Shown here: positions 1-8,950 of the stretch, piece after piece
Numbering within the stretch: the first letter of the stretch is position 1
How the letters are laid out: each line of letters begins with the position of its first letter
Virus record (IMG/VR): IMGVR_UViG_2690316166_000023
Strand: one strand, 5' to 3'
DNA: 9,395 nucleotides
Source: a virus
Lineage: Duplodnaviria; Heunggongvirae; Uroviricota; Caudoviricetes
Program-made: the position numbers and the translations under genes
Notes under the pieces: generated by a model
What the model saw: the letters and a program-made list of their open reading frames with translations, nothing else
The model's database searches: none
Told to the model about the DNA's origin: nothing

Positions 1-456
1 CAATCCGTGATCGAATAGAGCGGAATACGCACATTGGGTAAGTGCTGCTCTGTCTTCATCGCTGATGGTGCCCAGTTGTAGCTCCGTTCTCCAGTCATTA
101 ATTTTTTCATATGCCTGATTAAGATATGACTGGCGCATTGCTTCCAGTTTTCTTGCGTAGTTAACCGGAATACGGGAGATTATGCCATTATCAAACTTCC
201 AGTTTCCTGAAATATCCGTGCCTTCAGGGAGTTCATCGACCTCAACCACAGAAAACCCCGCAGGATACAGCGCCGAGGCGTCCTGTGATATTGAGCAGAT
301 AACGCCGCTGTCAGGTGTTATGCAAAGTTTATATTTTTTGGTGAATAATGGCAGGGATTCGTAGAAATCCTTACCATCTTCACTCTGGAAATACTGAACA
401 TTATTACCATATGGCATATTTTCAGGATAATAACGGGTTATATTTTTTAGTTCCAT
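1..456 (-). CDS. Tail fibre assembly protein (Tfa; P2 gpG / Mu U / Caudo_TAP family), partial: C-terminal end lies beyond the window start
   Basis: Minus-strand ATG at 456-454 preceded by AGGAGG (complement of 462-467); frame open for 152 codons to position 1 (hand-translated: MELKNITRYYPENMPYGNN...DASALYPAGFSVVEVDELPEG...GNWKFDNGIISR...SDEDRAALTQ...). The ...DAS.L.P.GFSVVEV... and ...DEERA.L... pattern matches my recollection of P2 gpG-type proteins. Not in the ORF track because no stop lies in the window. Confidence 0.7.
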   Translation of the reverse strand, partial: MELKNITRYYPENMPYGNNVQYFQSEDGKDFYESLPLFTKKYKLCITPDSGVICSISQDASALYPAGFSVVEVDELPEGTDISGNWKFDNGIISRIPVNYARKLEAMRQSYLNQAYEKINDWRTELQLGTISDEDRAALTQCAYSALFDHGL

Positions 457-486
457 AAAATCCTCCTGGAAATAAATCTGTTTTAA

Positions 487-2799: not shown

Positions 2800-2934
2800 C
2801 CTGCGTCCCGTCAAAGGGAACCCCATTAATATTTCTTGGGGTGGCGAGTCTATTCGCGGCAACGGCGGTGCCGTCCGATGGCAGAGCATTCGCCGCCCTG
2901 TTTACCGTTTCCCGTAAACCGAGGTTTTCAGGAA
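2800..2934 (-). CDS. 5' portion of a tail-fibre variable (C-terminal) segment that begins at the crossover site and has no start codon of its own; continues leftward into masked sequence
   Basis: Minus-strand frame with first codon bases at 2938, 2935, ... reads NRVNPGFPENLGLRETVNRAANALPSDGTAVAANRLATPRNINGVPFDGTQ. The LGL-ETVNRA-N motif is, as I recall it, the conserved junction of P2 H / Mu S / P1 S-type tail fibres. In-frame TAA at 2954-2956 immediately upstream and no ATG/GTG/TTG before the masked block. Confidence 0.5.
2909..2934. other. Site-specific recombination crossover site for the adjacent invertase (gix/pix/hix/cix-type, 12-2-12 imperfect dyad)
   Basis: TTCCCGTAAACC-GA-GGTTTTCAGGAA; the right half is the reverse complement of TTCCTGAAAACC, almost identical to the left half. 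Closely resembles the Mu gix site as I recall it (TTCCTGTAAACCGAGGTTTTGGATAA). Lies 65 bp upstream of the invertase start and inside the tail-fibre motif. Confidence 0.75.
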
Positions 2935-2999
2935 AGCCAGGATTAACTCTGTTTTATTCCTCATGCGACAATTCCGGCTTTTTATAATAAGGAAATCGT

Positions 3000-3572
3000 A
3001 TGCTGATTGGGTATATCAGGGTGTCAACAAATGACCAGAATACGGCGCTACAAAGAAATGCGCTGGAATGTGCAGGATGTGAGCTGTTTTTCGAAGACAG
3101 AATAAGCGGTAAGACAAGGGAGCGTCCCGGACTTAAACGCGCATTAAAGCGACTCCGGCCAGGGGATACCCTGCTGGTCTGGAAACTGGATCGCCTTGGA
3201 CGCAGTATGCAGCACCTTGTCCTTTTAACAGAAGAACTCCGGCAACGCGGCGTTAACTTCCGCAGCATTACGGACAATATTGATACATCCACTCCCATGG
3301 GACGTTTCTTTTTCCATATAATGGGCGCGCTGGCGGAAATGGAGCGGGAACTCATTATTGAACGTACACGCGCGGGTCTTGCTGCTGCCCGTGCTCAGGG
3401 GCGTCATGGCGGCAGACCTCAGAAACTGACAGAGAAAGAGCGGGAGCAAATCGCCCGTTTGCTGGCTAATGGCGAGTCCCGTAAACAAATCGCACTGATA
3501 TTTGATATTGGCCTTTCCACCCTTTATCGTTATTTTCCTGCCTCACCAGCTCCGTCACCAAAAGTACCGTGA
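3000..3572 (+). CDS. Serine recombinase: DNA invertase of the Gin/Pin/Hin/Cin family
   Basis: 190-aa ORF, ATG 3000 with AAGGAAA ribosome-binding site upstream. N-terminus MLIGYIRVSTNDQNT (catalytic Ser in RVST), ...GDTLLVWKLDRLGRS..., ...PMGRFFFHIMGALAEMERELIIERT..., C-terminal HTH (...IALIFDIGLSTLYRYF), all hallmark invertase blocks. Adjacent crossover site. Confidence 0.95.
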   Translation: MLIGYIRVSTNDQNTALQRNALECAGCELFFEDRISGKTRERPGLKRALKRLRPGDTLLVWKLDRLGRSMQHLVLLTEELRQRGVNFRSITDNIDTSTPMGRFFFHIMGALAEMERELIIERTRAGLAAARAQGRHGGRPQKLTEKEREQIARLLANGESRKQIALIFDIGLSTLYRYFPASPAPSPKVP

Positions 3573-3657
3573 CGCTTTTTTGAATTTCCGCAAAACACAT
3601 ATTTTTCAGCGGTCGCTATTCTGACTCTGTTTAATTCAGAAACAGGCAGAAAAGACG

Positions 3658-5712
3658 ATGTCAGACTCCAAGTGGAAAATGCTCTCCGCCATGCCCGGAG
3701 AGTTTTCAGTCAAGGTTGCCGGTGGCACGGTGGCATTTATTGAAAGCCCTTTCCGCCCTTCGGGTAATAAAGGGGGGATCACCTTCGCAGACTGCGTGAT
3801 CCGCTTCAGCACGAAAGAGCCATTATGGGTAATGCCGGTATCCGGTAATCCCAGTGCAGAAATCACCAGTTCAGGCGTGACTGGCATCATTCCAATCACA
3901 TCTGACGTGGCCGGAACGCTCACGCCCTCCGACTGGAATGCACCGGATAACGCCGGGCCTTCCGGTAGCACGAATGGCAGCAGTTCAGAGCCGGAATATT
4001 ACTTTGTTGTCATTCTCGCGGGTCAGTCAAATGGCATGGCCTACGGCGAGGGGCTGCCGTTACCGGATTCGTTTGACCGCCCGGACCCACGCATTAAGCA
4101 ACTGGCACGCCGCAGTACGGTAACGCCCAACGGTACGTCGTGTACATACAACGACATCATTCCGGCAGACCACTGCCTGCATGATGTTCAGGATATGAGC
4201 GGGATAAACCACCCGAAAGCTGATCTGGCAAAAGGCCAGTACGGGACTGTCGGTCAGGGGTTGCATATTGCCAAAAAACTGCTTCCCTATATCCCACAGA
4301 ATGCCGGGATACTTCTGGTGCCCTGTTGTCGTGGCGGGTCAGCATTCACCACTGGAGCCGACGGCTCATTCAGTGAGGCCAGCGGTGCTTCCGCTGATTC
4401 TTCACGCTGGGGGGCCGGTAAACCTCTGTATCAGGACCTGGTAAGCCGCACCAAAGTCGCGCTGGCGAAAAACCCGAAAAACAAACTTCTGGCTGTGGTC
4501 TGGATGCAGGGAGAGGCAGACCTTGCCTCAGGAAGCCAGCAGCATAATAGTTTATTCACGGCCATGGTTCAGCAGTTCAGAACTGACCTGGCTCCGCTTG
4601 CTGCGCAGTGCGTGAGTGGAAATGCCACCACGGTGCCGTGGATTTGCGGTGATACCACGTATTACTGGAAAAACGCTGGCACCGATAAATATGAGGCAGT
4701 ATACGGTGGCTACAAAGGCAAGGAAGCACAGAAAATTTTCTTTGTACCGTTCCTGACGGATGAGAATGGACAGAGCACGCCAACGAATGCTCCGGCGGAA
4801 GACCCGGATATTGTGGCTGTCGGGTATTACGGTGCAGCATCCCGAACCCAGGGCAGTTTTGTTTCGACACAGCGTGACAGCCATTTCAGCTCATGGGCAC
4901 GCAGGGGCGTCATTTCAGACCGTCTGGCCTCAGCTATTATGCTCCATGCAGGGCGCACGGCTGAACTGATGCGCGGGCAGACCGTGACACCACCGGATGA
5001 GAAGCCGTCACCTGATACACCATCAAAACCGTCCACGCCACCCGCAGACACCACGACGATGAGTACGCTATTTGCTTACCGGGCATCTGAGTCTGAAGGA
5101 CGGTTGACACCACAGGGTTGGGCTGCCGGAGGTGGCAAGGCTCAAATCGTGGATGATGCCGGAGCCAGCGGGGGTAAGGCAATGAAACTGACCAAGGAAA
5201 CAGGAAGAGCCCTCTGGTACCTTGAGCATGATGCTGGTAATGGTGCGGACCTGCTGGGTAAAGGTGGTCTTGTCAGTTGTCGTTTTAAACTCGATGGCGC
5301 GCTTACGGCTAATCAGTACGCACTGGCGCTGTACTGGCCGGTTTCTGCCCTGCCGCAAGGGGTTACTCTGGAAGGAAATGCCGGTCATAACCTGCTGGCA
5401 TCGTTCTACGTACAGAGCGATGCCACAGACCTTAACGTGATGTATCACAAAGGAAACACGGCGCAGAACACGAAGCTGGGGTCATTCGGCGCATTTAATA
5501 ACGAATGGCATACGCTGGGCTTCCGTTTTGCCGGTAACAACAGTATTGAGGTGACGCCGGTCATTGATGGTAAGGACGGGACACCATTCATGCTGTCGCA
5601 GTCTCCGGTCGGCACGTTTACGGCAGACAAGTTGCGCGTGACCGATATCACTAAAAATGCGACTTACCCGGTACTGATTGACAGTATCGTGGTGGAAGTG
5701 AATAACGCGTAA
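3658..5712 (+). CDS. SGNH/SASA-family carbohydrate O-acetylesterase, three-part architecture resembling prophage NanS-p sialate O-acetylesterases
   Basis: 684-aa ORF. SGNH blocks visible: block I VILAGQSNGMAYGEG (catalytic Ser), block II CCRGGSAF, block III WMQGEADL, block V RDSHFS (Asp/His). Preceded by a ~110-aa S/T/G-rich N-terminal region and followed by a Pro/Thr-rich linker (TPPDEKPSPDTPSKPSTPPADTTT, about nt 4980-5060) and a ~220-aa C-terminal domain. Weak ribosome-binding site. The enzyme class is well supported; the sialate substrate is inferred. Confidence 0.8.
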   Translation: MSDSKWKMLSAMPGEFSVKVAGGTVAFIESPFRPSGNKGGITFADCVIRFSTKEPLWVMPVSGNPSAEITSSGVTGIIPITSDVAGTLTPSDWNAPDNAGPSGSTNGSSSEPEYYFVVILAGQSNGMAYGEGLPLPDSFDRPDPRIKQLARRSTVTPNGTSCTYNDIIPADHCLHDVQDMSGINHPKADLAKGQYGTVGQGLHIAKKLLPYIPQNAGILLVPCCRGGSAFTTGADGSFSEASGASADSSRWGAGKPLYQDLVSRTKVALAKNPKNKLLAVVWMQGEADLASGSQQHNSLFTAMVQQFRTDLAPLAAQCVSGNATTVPWICGDTTYYWKNAGTDKYEAVYGGYKGKEAQKIFFVPFLTDENGQSTPTNAPAEDPDIVAVGYYGAASRTQGSFVSTQRDSHFSSWARRGVISDRLASAIMLHAGRTAELMRGQTVTPPDEKPSPDTPSKPSTPPADTTTMSTLFAYRASESEGRLTPQGWAAGGGKAQIVDDAGASGGKAMKLTKETGRALWYLEHDAGNGADLLGKGGLVSCRFKLDGALTANQYALALYWPVSALPQGVTLEGNAGHNLLASFYVQSDATDLNVMYHKGNTAQNTKLGSFGAFNNEWHTLGFRFAGNNSIEVTPVIDGKDGTPFMLSQSPVGTFTADKLRVTDITKNATYPVLIDSIVVEVNNA

Positions 5713-5726
5713 GCAGGATAAAAAAA

Positions 5727-5761
5727 TGCCGCCGGTAAGGGAAAACAAGAAACCGGCGGCA
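5727..5761. terminator. GC-rich stem-loop immediately after the esterase stop; a run of T follows it on the minus strand only
   Basis: Stem TGCCGCCGGT (5727-5736) pairs with ACCGGCGGCA (5752-5761), 15-nt loop. Flanked by AAAAAAA (5720-5726) upstream and AAAAAG downstream, so the canonical hairpin-plus-U-tract geometry exists for leftward transcription; rightward it is a hairpin without a U-tract. Confidence 0.4.
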
Positions 5762-5856
5762 AAAAGATCGTTATATCCAAAGCAAAAAATGCAGTGCACC
5801 TTTTTACCTAACAGATATTACCGGTGTCAACACCATGTCAATAATTGGGAGGGATA

Positions 5857-6039
5857 ATGACATTTTTACAGCTTATTTTATTGTATTTCTGCACGGCAGT
5901 ATGTGCGTTATATCTGGTGAGTGGTGGTTATAAGGCCATCAGAAATTATGTTCGCCGCAAAATTGAGGACGCAGCAGCTGAAAAACTCAGTAAAACAGCG
6001 CAGGTAACTCCGCTCCCAAAAGACCCGACCCAGCCCTGA
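5857..6039 (+). CDS. Small hypothetical membrane protein (60 aa): one N-terminal hydrophobic helix and a basic tail
   Basis: ATG 5857 four nt after GGGAGGG (5847-5853); MTFLQLILLYFCTAVCALYLVSGGYKAIRNYVRRKIEDAAAEKL... The ORF-track start at 5845 is a TTG with no ribosome-binding site. No family recognised. Confidence 0.5.
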   Translation: MTFLQLILLYFCTAVCALYLVSGGYKAIRNYVRRKIEDAAAEKLSKTAQVTPLPKDPTQP

Positions 6040-6074
6040 TTGCAGGGCTTTATTCCCGCATAAGGAGGATATAC

Positions 6075-6329
6075 ATGCCAGAAATTAAAGGCACCGTCAC
6101 TGAAGACCTGGTAAAACAGGCACTGTATTCCGGTGAAGTAAATAAGTTGCTGAAAGCGCAGGTCCGCAAGGATTTTGAGGCACAAATCGACACTTACGTT
6201 GATGAAGTGCTGGCAAAACTTATTGGGCCAGCAGTTGCGGCCAGTGATGCTGATAATGAGCCGAAAACCGACGCGCAGCCAGAGCAACCAGACCCGGCTC
6301 AGCCCGGAACTGACAGTACCATGATGTAA
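6075..6329 (+). CDS. Small hypothetical acidic protein (84 aa): helical N-terminus and an Asp/Glu/Pro/Gln-rich, probably disordered, C-terminus
   Basis: ATG 6075 with near-consensus ribosome-binding site AAGGAGG (6062-6068, 6-nt spacer); 35 nt downstream of the previous ORF on the same strand, so probably one operon. No family recognised. Confidence 0.6.
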   Translation: MPEIKGTVTEDLVKQALYSGEVNKLLKAQVRKDFEAQIDTYVDEVLAKLIGPAVAASDADNEPKTDAQPEQPDPAQPGTDSTMM

Positions 6330-6386
6330 CAATACAAACCGGTGGTGTCCTCTGCCGGTTTGACACTAATGAAAACATCTTTGCCG

Positions 6387-6427
6387 CTATCCAGCCATAT
6401 GTAATCGCTGGATAGTATTTCGTATTC
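6387..6427 (+). terminator. Candidate intrinsic terminator for the two-gene small operon
   Basis: Inverted repeat CTATCCAGC (6387-6395) / GCTGGATAG (6407-6415), 11-nt loop, followed by T-rich TATTTCGTATTC. A second imperfect hairpin sits at about 6335-6360. Confidence 0.35.
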
Positions 6428-6496
6428 AGAAATATAGCTGCTTATGGAGCAGTCAATCCTGCTTCCCCATCCGGGCAGGCAAATGAACCGGTATCA

Positions 6497-6790
6497 TTAG
6501 TCCGATTCACGCTTTTGTAGAATCGTTCCCAGAATGCTATACAGCTCATTAGCCTGTTGCTCCATCATTGAGACGGAGGCTATACGGTGCAAAGTGATTT
6601 CAGGAGGTGGCACACCTCCATCTTCTTGCTGTGGAGGAAAAACATAAGATTTAATAAAAAAGTTGAAGCATATGAACTCTCCCGCACTCGAACTGTATTT
6701 GCAGGCATCTGAATAATCGGAAAAATAATCATTATAGATTTCCGCATTTTCAATCATTTTTCGATTTCTCGTCGTTACATGATTGTCCAT
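6497..6790 (-). CDS. Hypothetical protein (97 aa), AT-rich, transcribed divergently from com-mom
   Basis: Minus-strand ATG at 6790-6788 with AAGAGG 5 nt upstream (complement of about 6796-6801). MDNHVTTRNRKMIENAEIYNDYFSDYSDACKYSS...; no family recognised. Composition appears more AT-rich than the flanking genes. Confidence 0.55.
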   Translation of the reverse strand: MDNHVTTRNRKMIENAEIYNDYFSDYSDACKYSSSAGEFICFNFFIKSYVFPPQQEDGGVPPPEITLHRIASVSMMEQQANELYSILGTILQKRESD

Positions 6791-6978
6791 AGCAGCCTCT
6801 TACGCTGGCAATTAACCAATTGACTTCTATAAATTAGTTGATTTGTTTGCTTTGCGGTATTCAAATGTACAATCATTCAGCACTTATGCGTTACAGCACC
6901 GTTTAAAATTAGTGATCAAACTCATAAATTTTCGCTAATGACATTTCGTGTTATTTGTTGTATCAATTAAATAAATCA

Positions 6979-7003
6979 AATCGATCGTTTTTGTCGATCG
7001 ATT
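6979..7003. promoter_or_regulatory. Palindromic operator-like element with two Dam (GATC) sites upstream of com-mom
   Basis: AATCGATCG-tttttgt-CGATCGATT: 9-bp arms in perfect inverted repeat, GATC at 6984-6987 and 6996-6999, a third GATC at 6914-6917. About 45-65 bp upstream of the com start. Mu mom is known to be controlled through clustered GATC sites whose methylation blocks OxyR binding. Confidence 0.45.
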
Positions 7004-7046
7004 GAGTGATAAAGATATCAACAACAAAGCAGGAGGTTATGCGGCC

Positions 7047-7247
7047 ATGTATCGAAACATACGGTGCCGACATTGTAACAAGCTACTGGCACGAGCCAGC
7101 TTCAGTTATCTGGAAGTTAAATGTCCGCGCTGTAAAACCCTCAATCAAATCACATCTCAGAGCGCCACAGAGCACCCCACATACACAAGGAAATCCTGTC
7201 GTGGGGAACAGAAAGCAAGTTACATCCCGTATCATCAGCACGCCTGA
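7047..7247 (+). CDS. com: Com-like zinc-finger translational activator
   Basis: 66-aa ORF, ATG 7047 ten nt after AGGAGG (7031-7036). [30 protein letters not shown]... has the Cys-X2-Cys...Cys-X2-Cys pattern and aligns block-wise with Mu Com as I recall it (MKSIRCKNCNKLL...IEIRCPRCK...). Its 3' end overlaps the following mom-like frame. The ORF-track start at 7002 is a TTG extension. Confidence 0.8.
7175..7206 (+). promoter_or_regulatory. RNA hairpin that would sequester the putative mom GTG start codon and its ribosome-binding site (candidate Com-responsive translational switch)
   Basis: CCCCAC (7175-7180) is the exact complement of GTGGGG (7201-7206); the 20-nt loop holds AAGGAAA; the GTG at 7201-7203 is in the mom frame and inside the 3' arm. 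It lies inside the 3' end of com, the arrangement known for Mu. Confidence 0.4.
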
Positions 7248-7938
7248 ACTTATTCACTATAACGACAATATCGTCGGTTATGGCTCCCGTGAGTTACGGG
7301 TTGAGACAATAAGTTGCTGGCTGGCCCGGCTGGTCGTCGTCAATAAACATTACAGCCATCGTTTCGTAAATAATTCCTACCTTCATCTGGGCATATTTTC
7401 AGAACGGGAGCTGGTTGGCGTAATGCAATGGGGTTATGCCCTTAATCCAAACAATGGTGCACGCGTCGTAACTGGCACGCAGAACCGCGAATATATGGAG
7501 CTTAACCGGTTATGGCTGCATGACTGTATGCCGAGAAACTCCGAATCAAGGGCAATCAGTTACGCGCTCAAACTAATCAGACAACTTTATCCGCAGGTGC
7601 AGTGGGTTCAGTCGTTTGCAGATGAGCGTTGTGGCTGTCTTGGTGTCGTGTACCAGGCAAGCAATTTTGATTATGTAGGCAGTCATGAAACAACATTCTA
7701 TGAACTTGATGGCGAGTGGTATCACGAGATTTGCAAGAATGCAATCAAACGAGGAGGACAGCGAGGTGAACATCTGCGGGCTAATATCGACAGAGCCAGT
7801 GTTCATAAATTCCGTCAGTTTCGTTACATCCGGTTTCTGGACAAGAGAGCCAGAAAACGCCTTAACACAAAGCTATTCAAAGTCCAGCCTTACCCAAAAC
7901 CACAAACAGTTAAAACTGGTTTGAAAGAGAGTGAATGA
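7201..7938 (+). CDS. mom: Mom-like DNA modification protein (adenine-modifying, acyltransferase-like); start uncertain: GTG 7201 proposed, maximal ORF begins at 7006
   Basis: Long ORF ending at 7938 that overlaps com in another frame, which is the signature com-mom arrangement. GTG 7201 has AAGGA 8 nt upstream and sits in the hairpin, giving 245 aa (Mu Mom is about 230 aa). Assignment rests on context; I cannot recall Mom sequence well enough to align it. Confidence 0.6.
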
Positions 7939-7995
7939 ACGCTTAAAAACTCATTCTAAAACTCAAAAGAAAAGCGCCGATTTAGTATCAAATAA

Positions 7996-8862
<867 letters not shown>

Positions 8863-8870
8863 GTAACAGT

Positions 8871-8950
8871 GCCGGATGCGGCGTGAACGCCTTATCCGGC
8901 CTACATGTCGCACGAACCAGGAAGGCCCGATAAGCGCAGCGCATCGGGCA
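8871..8950. repeat. REP/BIME element: two palindromic units in the convergent intergenic gap
   Basis: GCCGGATGCGGCGTGAACGCCTTATCCGGCCTACA (8871-8905) is a textbook E. coli-type REP; the second unit GCCCGATAAGCGCAGCGCATCGGGC (8925-8949) is an inverted-repeat variant. Confidence 0.75.

Follow-up and report, generated by a model that had tools for sequence, protein, structure and literature searches.

A Mu-like Escherichia coli prophage with a probable compact counterpart of the Mu G segment at its right end

The invertible tail-fibre segment that most resembles the locus described here is the G segment of bacteriophage Mu, which follows an S-U-U'-S' logic (PMC4406740). The gene order gp48 - S - segment - invertase - com/mom - right end is the same in Mu (also in D108 and SfMu) and at our locus, and in both cases the tail-fibre gene joins a constant N-terminal part to alternative C-termini and the silent cassette faces the invertase. 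In the C segment of P1, which also relies on a serine invertase (Cin), the cin gene is found on the other side, the repeats measure 0.6 kb and the segment 4.2 kb. The Min system of p15B is likewise based on a Gin-family invertase that acts on fibre gene ends, with six crossover sites and several cassettes; the locus described here differs from it in having two sites and two cassettes. Among phage records, the closest relative is a Mu-like phage inserted in Stx-converting phages (LC727881 and LC727895), which has the same compact layout, a single convergent tail-fibre assembly gene (tfa) and two site cores 1.37 kb apart, but represents another lineage at ~25% DNA divergence, with full-length S at 76% identity and the invertase region at 75% on the DNA level. 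In these records the locus is annotated solely as 'region of the inserted Bacteriophage Mu-like phage', with segment and sites unmarked, and in the phage collection no sequenced phage carries the module above about 75% DNA identity. The compact module is previously undescribed and is, at the same time, an unsurprising member of the classical Gin-type system. In particular, it is very probably a compact orthologue of the Mu G segment, that is, the invertible tail-fibre switch itself.

The window (the whole stretch of DNA analysed, 9,395 nucleotides) corresponds to positions 3-9397 of CXEP01000023.1, a contig of the draft E. coli assembly GCA_001256535.1. It holds the right-hand end of a transposable prophage of Mu type that has inserted into an E. 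coli 6-phospho-beta-glucosidase gene. Prophages in complete E. coli genomes and in other contigs are 100.0% identical to window positions 32-486 and 2800-8027. The plus strand carries com (7047-7247, Zn_ribbon_Com Pfam match) and mom (7201-7938, Mom Pfam match), followed by the prophage right end ...ATCGCCGCGCTATA at 8044, an end common to 13 relatives (L001-L013); together, these features show the prophage to be Mu-like and transposable and the switch to lie at its right end. The start of mom is overlapped by 47 nt of com, the same as in Mu. Beyond the shared end ...CGCGCTATA each of the 13 relatives continues into a host flank of its own, which is what transposition would lead one to expect, and Mu-type genes are present in the relatives (Gp41_Mu, Phage_Mu_Gp45, GP46, Baseplate_J and Phage_Mu_Gp48). 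A Mu-like transposable prophage is recognized by its Mu-type tail and baseplate genes, by com/mom at its right end and by insertion at many host sites, and all of these features are found. BLAST matches to the relatives stop at 8027, which reflects a 22-nt indel, the true prophage end being at 8044. Indeed, 22 nt (TGAAATGCAAATCGGTATCAAA) present in 13/13 relatives are missing from the window at 8027/8028; in the relatives they stand between two copies of the direct repeat GGTATCAAA, with the end of the prophage about 17 nt away (region 7990-8044). As the transposase of Mu binds to sites in this terminal region, loss of the 22 nt might disable transposition; alternatively, it might represent an assembly collapse.

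The core of the locus is a 26-bp dyad at 2909-2934, which the preliminary description had placed inside a conserved tail-fibre motif, in a minus-strand frame without a start codon that is closed by a TAA at 2954-2956. All of these elements are borne out by the sequence. The 26-mer TTCCCGTAAACCGAGGTTTTCAGGAA occurs once in the window and is not expected by chance, as 200 shuffles gave 0 matches at <=3 mismatches. It reads TTCCCGTAAACC GA GGTTTTCAGGAA, with the central dinucleotide at 2921-2922, and forms an imperfect dyad of two 12-bp half-sites, TTCCCGTAAACC and TTCCTGAAAACC, around the 2-bp GA core, as in a right crossover site of the gixR type. The minus-strand frame through the site reads ...SHEE*NRVNPGFPENLGLRETVNRAANALPSDGTAVAANRLATPRNINGVPFDGTQ, so that the motif had been quoted correctly; ATG, GTG and TTG are absent from the visible part of the frame, and the in-frame TAA shuts it on the invertase side. 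Positions 2800-2953 (minus strand) represent the 5' part of a promoterless alternative fibre C-terminus (S'v, referred to as Sv2) that has no start codon; they are identical to positions 6716-6869 of the relative L003, and the ~80 remaining codons fall in a gap of the scaffold. In relatives, the Sv2 cassette reaches its stop 361 nt away from the centre of the site. No minus-strand promoter that could serve the silent cassette turned up in a simple scan. Where the window reads without a break, Sv2 and the tfa downstream of it face the invertase and have neither start codon nor promoter, so that the cassette is silent (an arrangement that we refer to as state A), in agreement with the earlier proposal that the fibre segment adjoining the invertase is off; both states are seen in relatives. 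In state A, tfa would be silent as well.

On the other side of the site, the plus strand encodes a Gin-family serine DNA invertase of 190 aa (3000-3572), with an intact ORF. The protein has the organization of a small serine recombinase, namely an N-terminal catalytic domain (Resolvase, residues 3-135, E 2e-51) with the active-site serine near residue 9-10 (Ser9, in the motif YIRVSTNDQ) and a C-terminal helix-turn-helix (HTH_7, residues 138-181). Comparison with the Mu Gin structures 4M6F/3UJ3 gives an E value of 2e-88, with YIRVSTNDQ aligned to Mu Gin Ser9, and the sequence is 73.9% identical to Mu Gin over 184 aa. The same protein is listed in 5547 blocks of a public collection. No promoter-like site for the invertase was found by a simple scan, a result that we count against the reading of the locus as a working Gin-type switch. 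NCBIfam gave no match for S, tfa or the DUF6645 protein encoded further downstream, and resolvase-type matches below threshold only.

By homology, the 5' part of the invertase gene contains a putative Fis-dependent recombinational enhancer (3018-3089, plus strand). The P1 record annotates the Cin enhancer at nt 19-90 of cin, an interval that is conserved here. Two blocks, nt 25-35 and nt 73-83, are invariant when this gene is compared with gin and cin, with 48 bp separating the start of the first from that of the second. In 8 related invertase genes, and within what is coding sequence, synonymous-site identity reaches 0.81 in codons 7-12 and 0.74 in codons 25-30, as compared with about 0.4 between those two blocks and a background of 0.43 in codons 31-88. 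The two conservation peaks fit two putative Fis sites. Some related prophages have tfa and the DUF6645 gene with no annotated recombinase (e.g. NZ_CP145714.1 266258-271356); the span present in them implies a deletion that starts in the silent cassette and reaches into the invertase gene, so that the segment would be fixed in one orientation.

The other half of the switch can be read in the relatives. In 12 of the 13 (L001 and L003-L013) the layout is gp48(+) S(+) tfa(-) ~120-codon fibre end(-) site invertase(+), and at least 9 of these 12 are 100% identical to the readable flanks of the window; the exception is L002, in which the segment is inverted. The preliminary description had considered that the lack of a second site within a few kb would speak against a switch. 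In relatives with 100% identical flanks, a second and inverted site, TTATCGATAACG TC GGTTTACGGGAA, with the identical central dinucleotide, is located 517 nt within S, at a distance of 1.3 kb from the right site. A search with the full 26-mer at <=3 mismatches had retrieved one site in the relatives, because 5 positions differ in the outer half of the left site; inspection of the sequence, followed by a search for the core, revealed the second. Exactly two site cores, inverted with respect to each other, are present in 20.5 kb of the complete relative L005, and two are also found in 5.7 kb of the diverged L019.

Inversion in place is directly visible in two of the relatives. A stretch of 6573 nt that covers the prophage end and the host flank is 100% identical in L013 (FORC_069) and L002 (FORC_043), which thus stem from one insertion event. 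Their blastn comparison gives collinear, inverted and again collinear blocks, with overlaps of 141-143 bp that correspond to the inverted repeats. The outer half-sites remain with their flanks (TTATCGATAACG beside the constant part of S, Sc, and TTCCTGAAAACC beside the invertase) and all sequence inward of the shared CGGTTTACGGGAAACGGT swaps partner. Strand exchange is thereby confined to the core dinucleotide and the identical inner half-site, which is the interval expected for a Gin-type reaction. Both orientations, with the exchange at the site, are thus documented in relatives rather than in this isolate. The two junctions also recur at >=99% in complete E. coli records, 17 of them joining Sc to the other variable end (Sv1) and 6 joining Sc to Sv2. 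The G-segment logic that had been proposed for the locus is therefore upheld, as the cassette beside the invertase comes to expression only once inversion fuses it to the constant 177-aa N-terminal part of S, and each of the two states occurs among the relatives. In L001 (NZ_CP147059.1 930892-961792) the prophage copy is scrambled, with the tape-measure gene split and inverted and a deletion from the DNA-circularisation gene into gp48; its switch module is intact and 100% identical to that of the window.

The likeness to Mu extends to the position and sequence of the sites. The gix sites of Mu fall at homologous codons of S, which read FIQNLGLQETVNRA in Mu and F[ID/PE]N[VL]GLRETVNRA here. Mu gix, TTATCCAAAACC TC GGTTTACAGGAA, is found at both segment ends on the other strand, with the same central dinucleotide as here; its half-sites TTATCCAAAACC and TTCCTGTAAACC are arranged around the same core, which is followed by the same 14 bases, ACGGTAAACAGGGC. 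Sc is 47% identical to residues 1-198 of Mu S. When the fibre peptide was compared with P2 H, Mu S/S' and P1 S, as had been suggested, the tips matched theirs; the tip of P1 S is homologous, with 44% identity over residues 231-296, and the invertase genes of the two systems differ in sequence, at ~67% identity at the DNA level. In other respects the locus departs from Mu. The segment measures 1.3 kb instead of 3.0 kb, and the variable parts ~117-120 aa instead of ~320-335 aa. A single tfa, linked to Sv2, is present where Mu has U and U', so that with one Caudo_TAP gene the locus is not a strict four-gene G segment (S-U / U'-S') with an assembly gene for each fibre end. The inverted repeat is imperfect and longer than the 34-bp repeat of Mu: its right arm (2844-2929, 86 nt) is 92% complementary to the left arm of the relatives, and a second block (2781-2830, 50 nt) reaches 84%, as determined by a repeat search on L005 (arms 8598-8683 / 9845-9930 and 8697-8746 / 9782-9831). 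Finally, 3.4 kb of cargo (SASA/DUF6645, DUF1378 and DUF826) is interposed between the invertase and com/mom here and not in Mu.

In the window itself, the second site and the constant part of S fall in gaps. The left end carries tfa (1-466, minus strand; Caudo_TAP, E 5e-19), which is cut by the contig start; in relatives the gene encodes 173 aa, begins its course 51 bp downstream of the silent cassette stop within the invertible segment, and is 28-32% identical to Mu U/U'. The tfa stretch at 32-486 is found in 441 genomes and also in plasmids, and bases 32-90 belong to a widely repeated tfa stretch present in 651 genomes and many plasmids. Bases 1-31 diverge from the tfa 3' end of every relative, and in 0/5426 complete E. 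coli genomes are these 31 nt (33 nt when counted from the contig start) joined to this tfa; they are probably a repeat-induced contig end or part of a mosaic tfa. Four N runs follow (487-665, 708-1838, 1859-2357 and 2447-2799), with three islands between them. The same N runs stand in the public record CXEP01000023.1, including those between 1839-1858 and 666-707, where the second site of this genome would be situated, and no genes are called across them. Two further N runs of the same scaffold, in the host hyc genes (L014 15296-15342 and 17905-17928), offer a measure of how their lengths are to be read: across them the scaffold has 3101 nt as compared with 3058 in 6/6 complete genomes, 71 N replacing 28 bases, an excess of 43 nt for the two runs combined. 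What the Ns represent is therefore gaps in the scaffold of a short-read draft, with lengths that are estimates, and not masked sequence. The '2.4 kb between' tfa and the silent cassette that had been noted earlier is therefore not a measured distance, and the proposal to obtain the unmasked sequence falls away, as the public record carries identical Ns and there is no hidden sequence to recover from it.

Three short islands interrupt the gaps, and all of them lie on the minus strand. The first (666-707) contains the last 10 codons of Sv1, with the stop at 677-679 and 11 nt downstream, and is an exact reverse-orientation match to L003 5842-5883 and L005 8927-8968. The second (1839-1858) belongs to Sc, 139 nt into S, and is matched exactly, again in reverse orientation, in 13/13 relatives. 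The third (2358-2446) is an internal piece of gp48 (Phage_Mu_Gp48), the gene upstream of S, with an 89-nt exact match, likewise reversed, in L001 and L004-L012. The islands belong to the remaining half of this switch and do not represent further cassettes. In 13/13 relatives examined the distance from the tfa start to the invertase start is 506 bp, as compared with 2559 in the scaffold. No single real state has the order seen in the scaffold, tfa(-) Sv1 end(-) Sc(-) gp48(-) Sv2(-) invertase(+), and the island spacing exceeds that of the relatives by 63 and 439 nt. Each adjacency taken by itself is familiar: state A accounts for tfa-Sv2-site-invertase and, as its reverse complement, for Sv1 end-Sc-gp48, and the reverse complement of state B accounts for tfa-Sv2-gixL-Sc-gp48. 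Reasoning from scaffolder behaviour rather than from reads, we are inclined to think that the scaffolder linearised read-pair links from both orientations, an explanation that we hold with some reserve. A mixed-orientation reading of this kind would mean that both states were probably present in the sequenced DNA, and the widely repeated tfa stretch together with the unmatched first 31 nt would add to the ambiguity at the left contig. A single or double inversion of the canonical layout was also considered, and no simple model of this type gives both the order and the +63/+439 spacing. An exact scan for the prophage-host junction in genome, viral and metagenome contig collections returned no match.

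The same scaffold order could alternatively reflect a real rearrangement, in which an inverted gp48'-S block lies between tfa and the silent cassette and the switch is scrambled. Secondary recombination at pseudo-sites, homologous exchange involving the 140-bp repeats when two copies of the prophage are present, or a rearrangement caused by Mu-type transposition could each lead to such a structure, and even taken jointly these routes remain improbable, as does the rearrangement as such. Island order and orientation that match no canonical state, together with the enlarged spacing, are what a rearrangement would leave behind; L001 offers an example of a scrambled, internally deleted copy of the prophage, and the window has its own irregularities in the 22-nt deletion at the prophage end and the unmatched 31 nt at the contig start. 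However, islands on the same strand as the flanks occur in 0/5426 complete E. coli genomes, and neither of the window-specific adjacencies is present in IMG/VR, as searched with gapped patterns across two N blocks. Moreover, islands of 20-89 nt between estimated gaps are typical of short-read scaffolding in ambiguous regions, and state A or state B explains every pairwise adjacency. Less probable still is that the module is a fossil, with a defective prophage, a frozen segment and no switching in this strain. The 22-nt deletion may impair transposition, relatives without the invertase exist and state A is the commoner one (17 versus 6 records), all of which would suit a frozen segment; yet many prophages share this intact invertase ORF in identical form, the site is undamaged, sister strains carry one insertion event in both states and the scaffold itself hints at both.

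Two further readings concern the content of the interval between tfa and the silent cassette. The preliminary description had seen in its 2.4 kb room for more than one alternative cassette, and additional fibre cassettes and crossover sites in the 2.3-kb interval would make the locus a Min (p15B)-like multi-site system. The nominal length is what speaks for it, along with the existence of multi-site fibre shufflers in related phage-plasmids. We consider this very unlikely, as the interval is a scaffold gap of unreliable length that corresponds to 260 bp in relatives with 100% identical flanks, and the relatives with the 506-bp spacing have two sites. Neither in L005 nor in L019 are there more than two sites and more than two cassettes, as a Min- or shufflon-like system would have; both hold exactly two site cores, and what the islands contain is gp48, Sc and the end of Sv1 rather than any new fibre end. 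The least likely of all is an IS or group II intron of about 2 kb inserted in the silent cassette: the extra interval of 2053 nt is in the size range of such elements, but the gap lengths are estimates, and each of the three islands is a prophage gene (gp48, Sc or the Sv1 end) and none is mobile-element sequence.

For the compact switch of Mu type, which is the reading that we prefer, the following mechanism can be proposed. The fibre gene S ends the late operon; its first ~177 codons (Sc) lie outside the 1.3-kb invertible segment, and its last ~117-120 codons are supplied by whichever of the two cassettes (Sv1 or Sv2) is turned towards Sc. The gene for the Gin-like invertase lies immediately beyond the segment; the enzyme would pair the two inverted 26-bp sites, and strand exchange at the shared central TC/GA dinucleotide would flip the segment. 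Inversion would probably require Fis at the putative enhancer, nt 19-90 of the invertase's own gene. In state A, the expressed fibre would be Sc+Sv1, and the two tips would be expected to differ in receptor specificity.

A distinctive feature of the segment is that its sole tfa lies on the Sv2 strand, with no assembly gene on the Sv1 strand. This single-tfa layout is repeated in L019, from a lineage ~25% diverged, which points to a conserved design. A perfect 8-bp GC-rich hairpin (AGAAGGCCTTCCGGCCTTCT) is located between the Sv1 stop and the convergent tfa stop (L005 8966-8985); its position falls in the window gap 487-665, and the island 666-707 ends exactly at the hairpin foot. The hairpin could terminate transcription from either direction. 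We tentatively raise the possibility, which we consider less likely than not, of an asymmetric switch unlike that of Mu, in which Sc+Sv2 would be expressed with tfa and Sc+Sv1 without a chaperone gene, ending at the hairpin. If this were true, either Sv1 would fold without Tfa, or inversion would toggle the supply of the chaperone in addition to receptor specificity. State A, the commoner one in the records (17 versus 6), might then be a low-infectivity or 'fibre-less' state.

As a classical Gin-type host-range switch that is common in a widespread E. coli Mu-like prophage lineage, the locus brings little new biology, and its value is that of a clean natural demonstration of in-place inversion. 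It also illustrates that N runs of draft assemblies can pass for hidden sequence, and that invertible segments are spots where short-read scaffolds turn chimeric. In parallel, the compact single-chaperone segment may provide a convenient minimal system for the question of fibre-tip folding without Tfa.

The remainder of the window is occupied by the cargo and the host flank. The 3.4 kb between invertase and com/mom, for which there is no Mu counterpart, include at 3658-6790 the genes for a 684-aa protein (SASA and C-terminal DUF6645), for DUF1378 and DUF826 proteins, and a minus-strand 97-aa ORF. SASA being a sialate O-acetylesterase-like domain, the 684-aa protein could be a surface-carbohydrate-modifying or tail-associated esterase. 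Beyond the prophage end, the remnant of the interrupted 6-phospho-beta-glucosidase gene (8045-8862; Glyco_hydro_1, bglA-like) retains the C-terminal 270 codons on this side, and is followed by a REP element (about 8870-8950) and then by a higA/higB-like pair.
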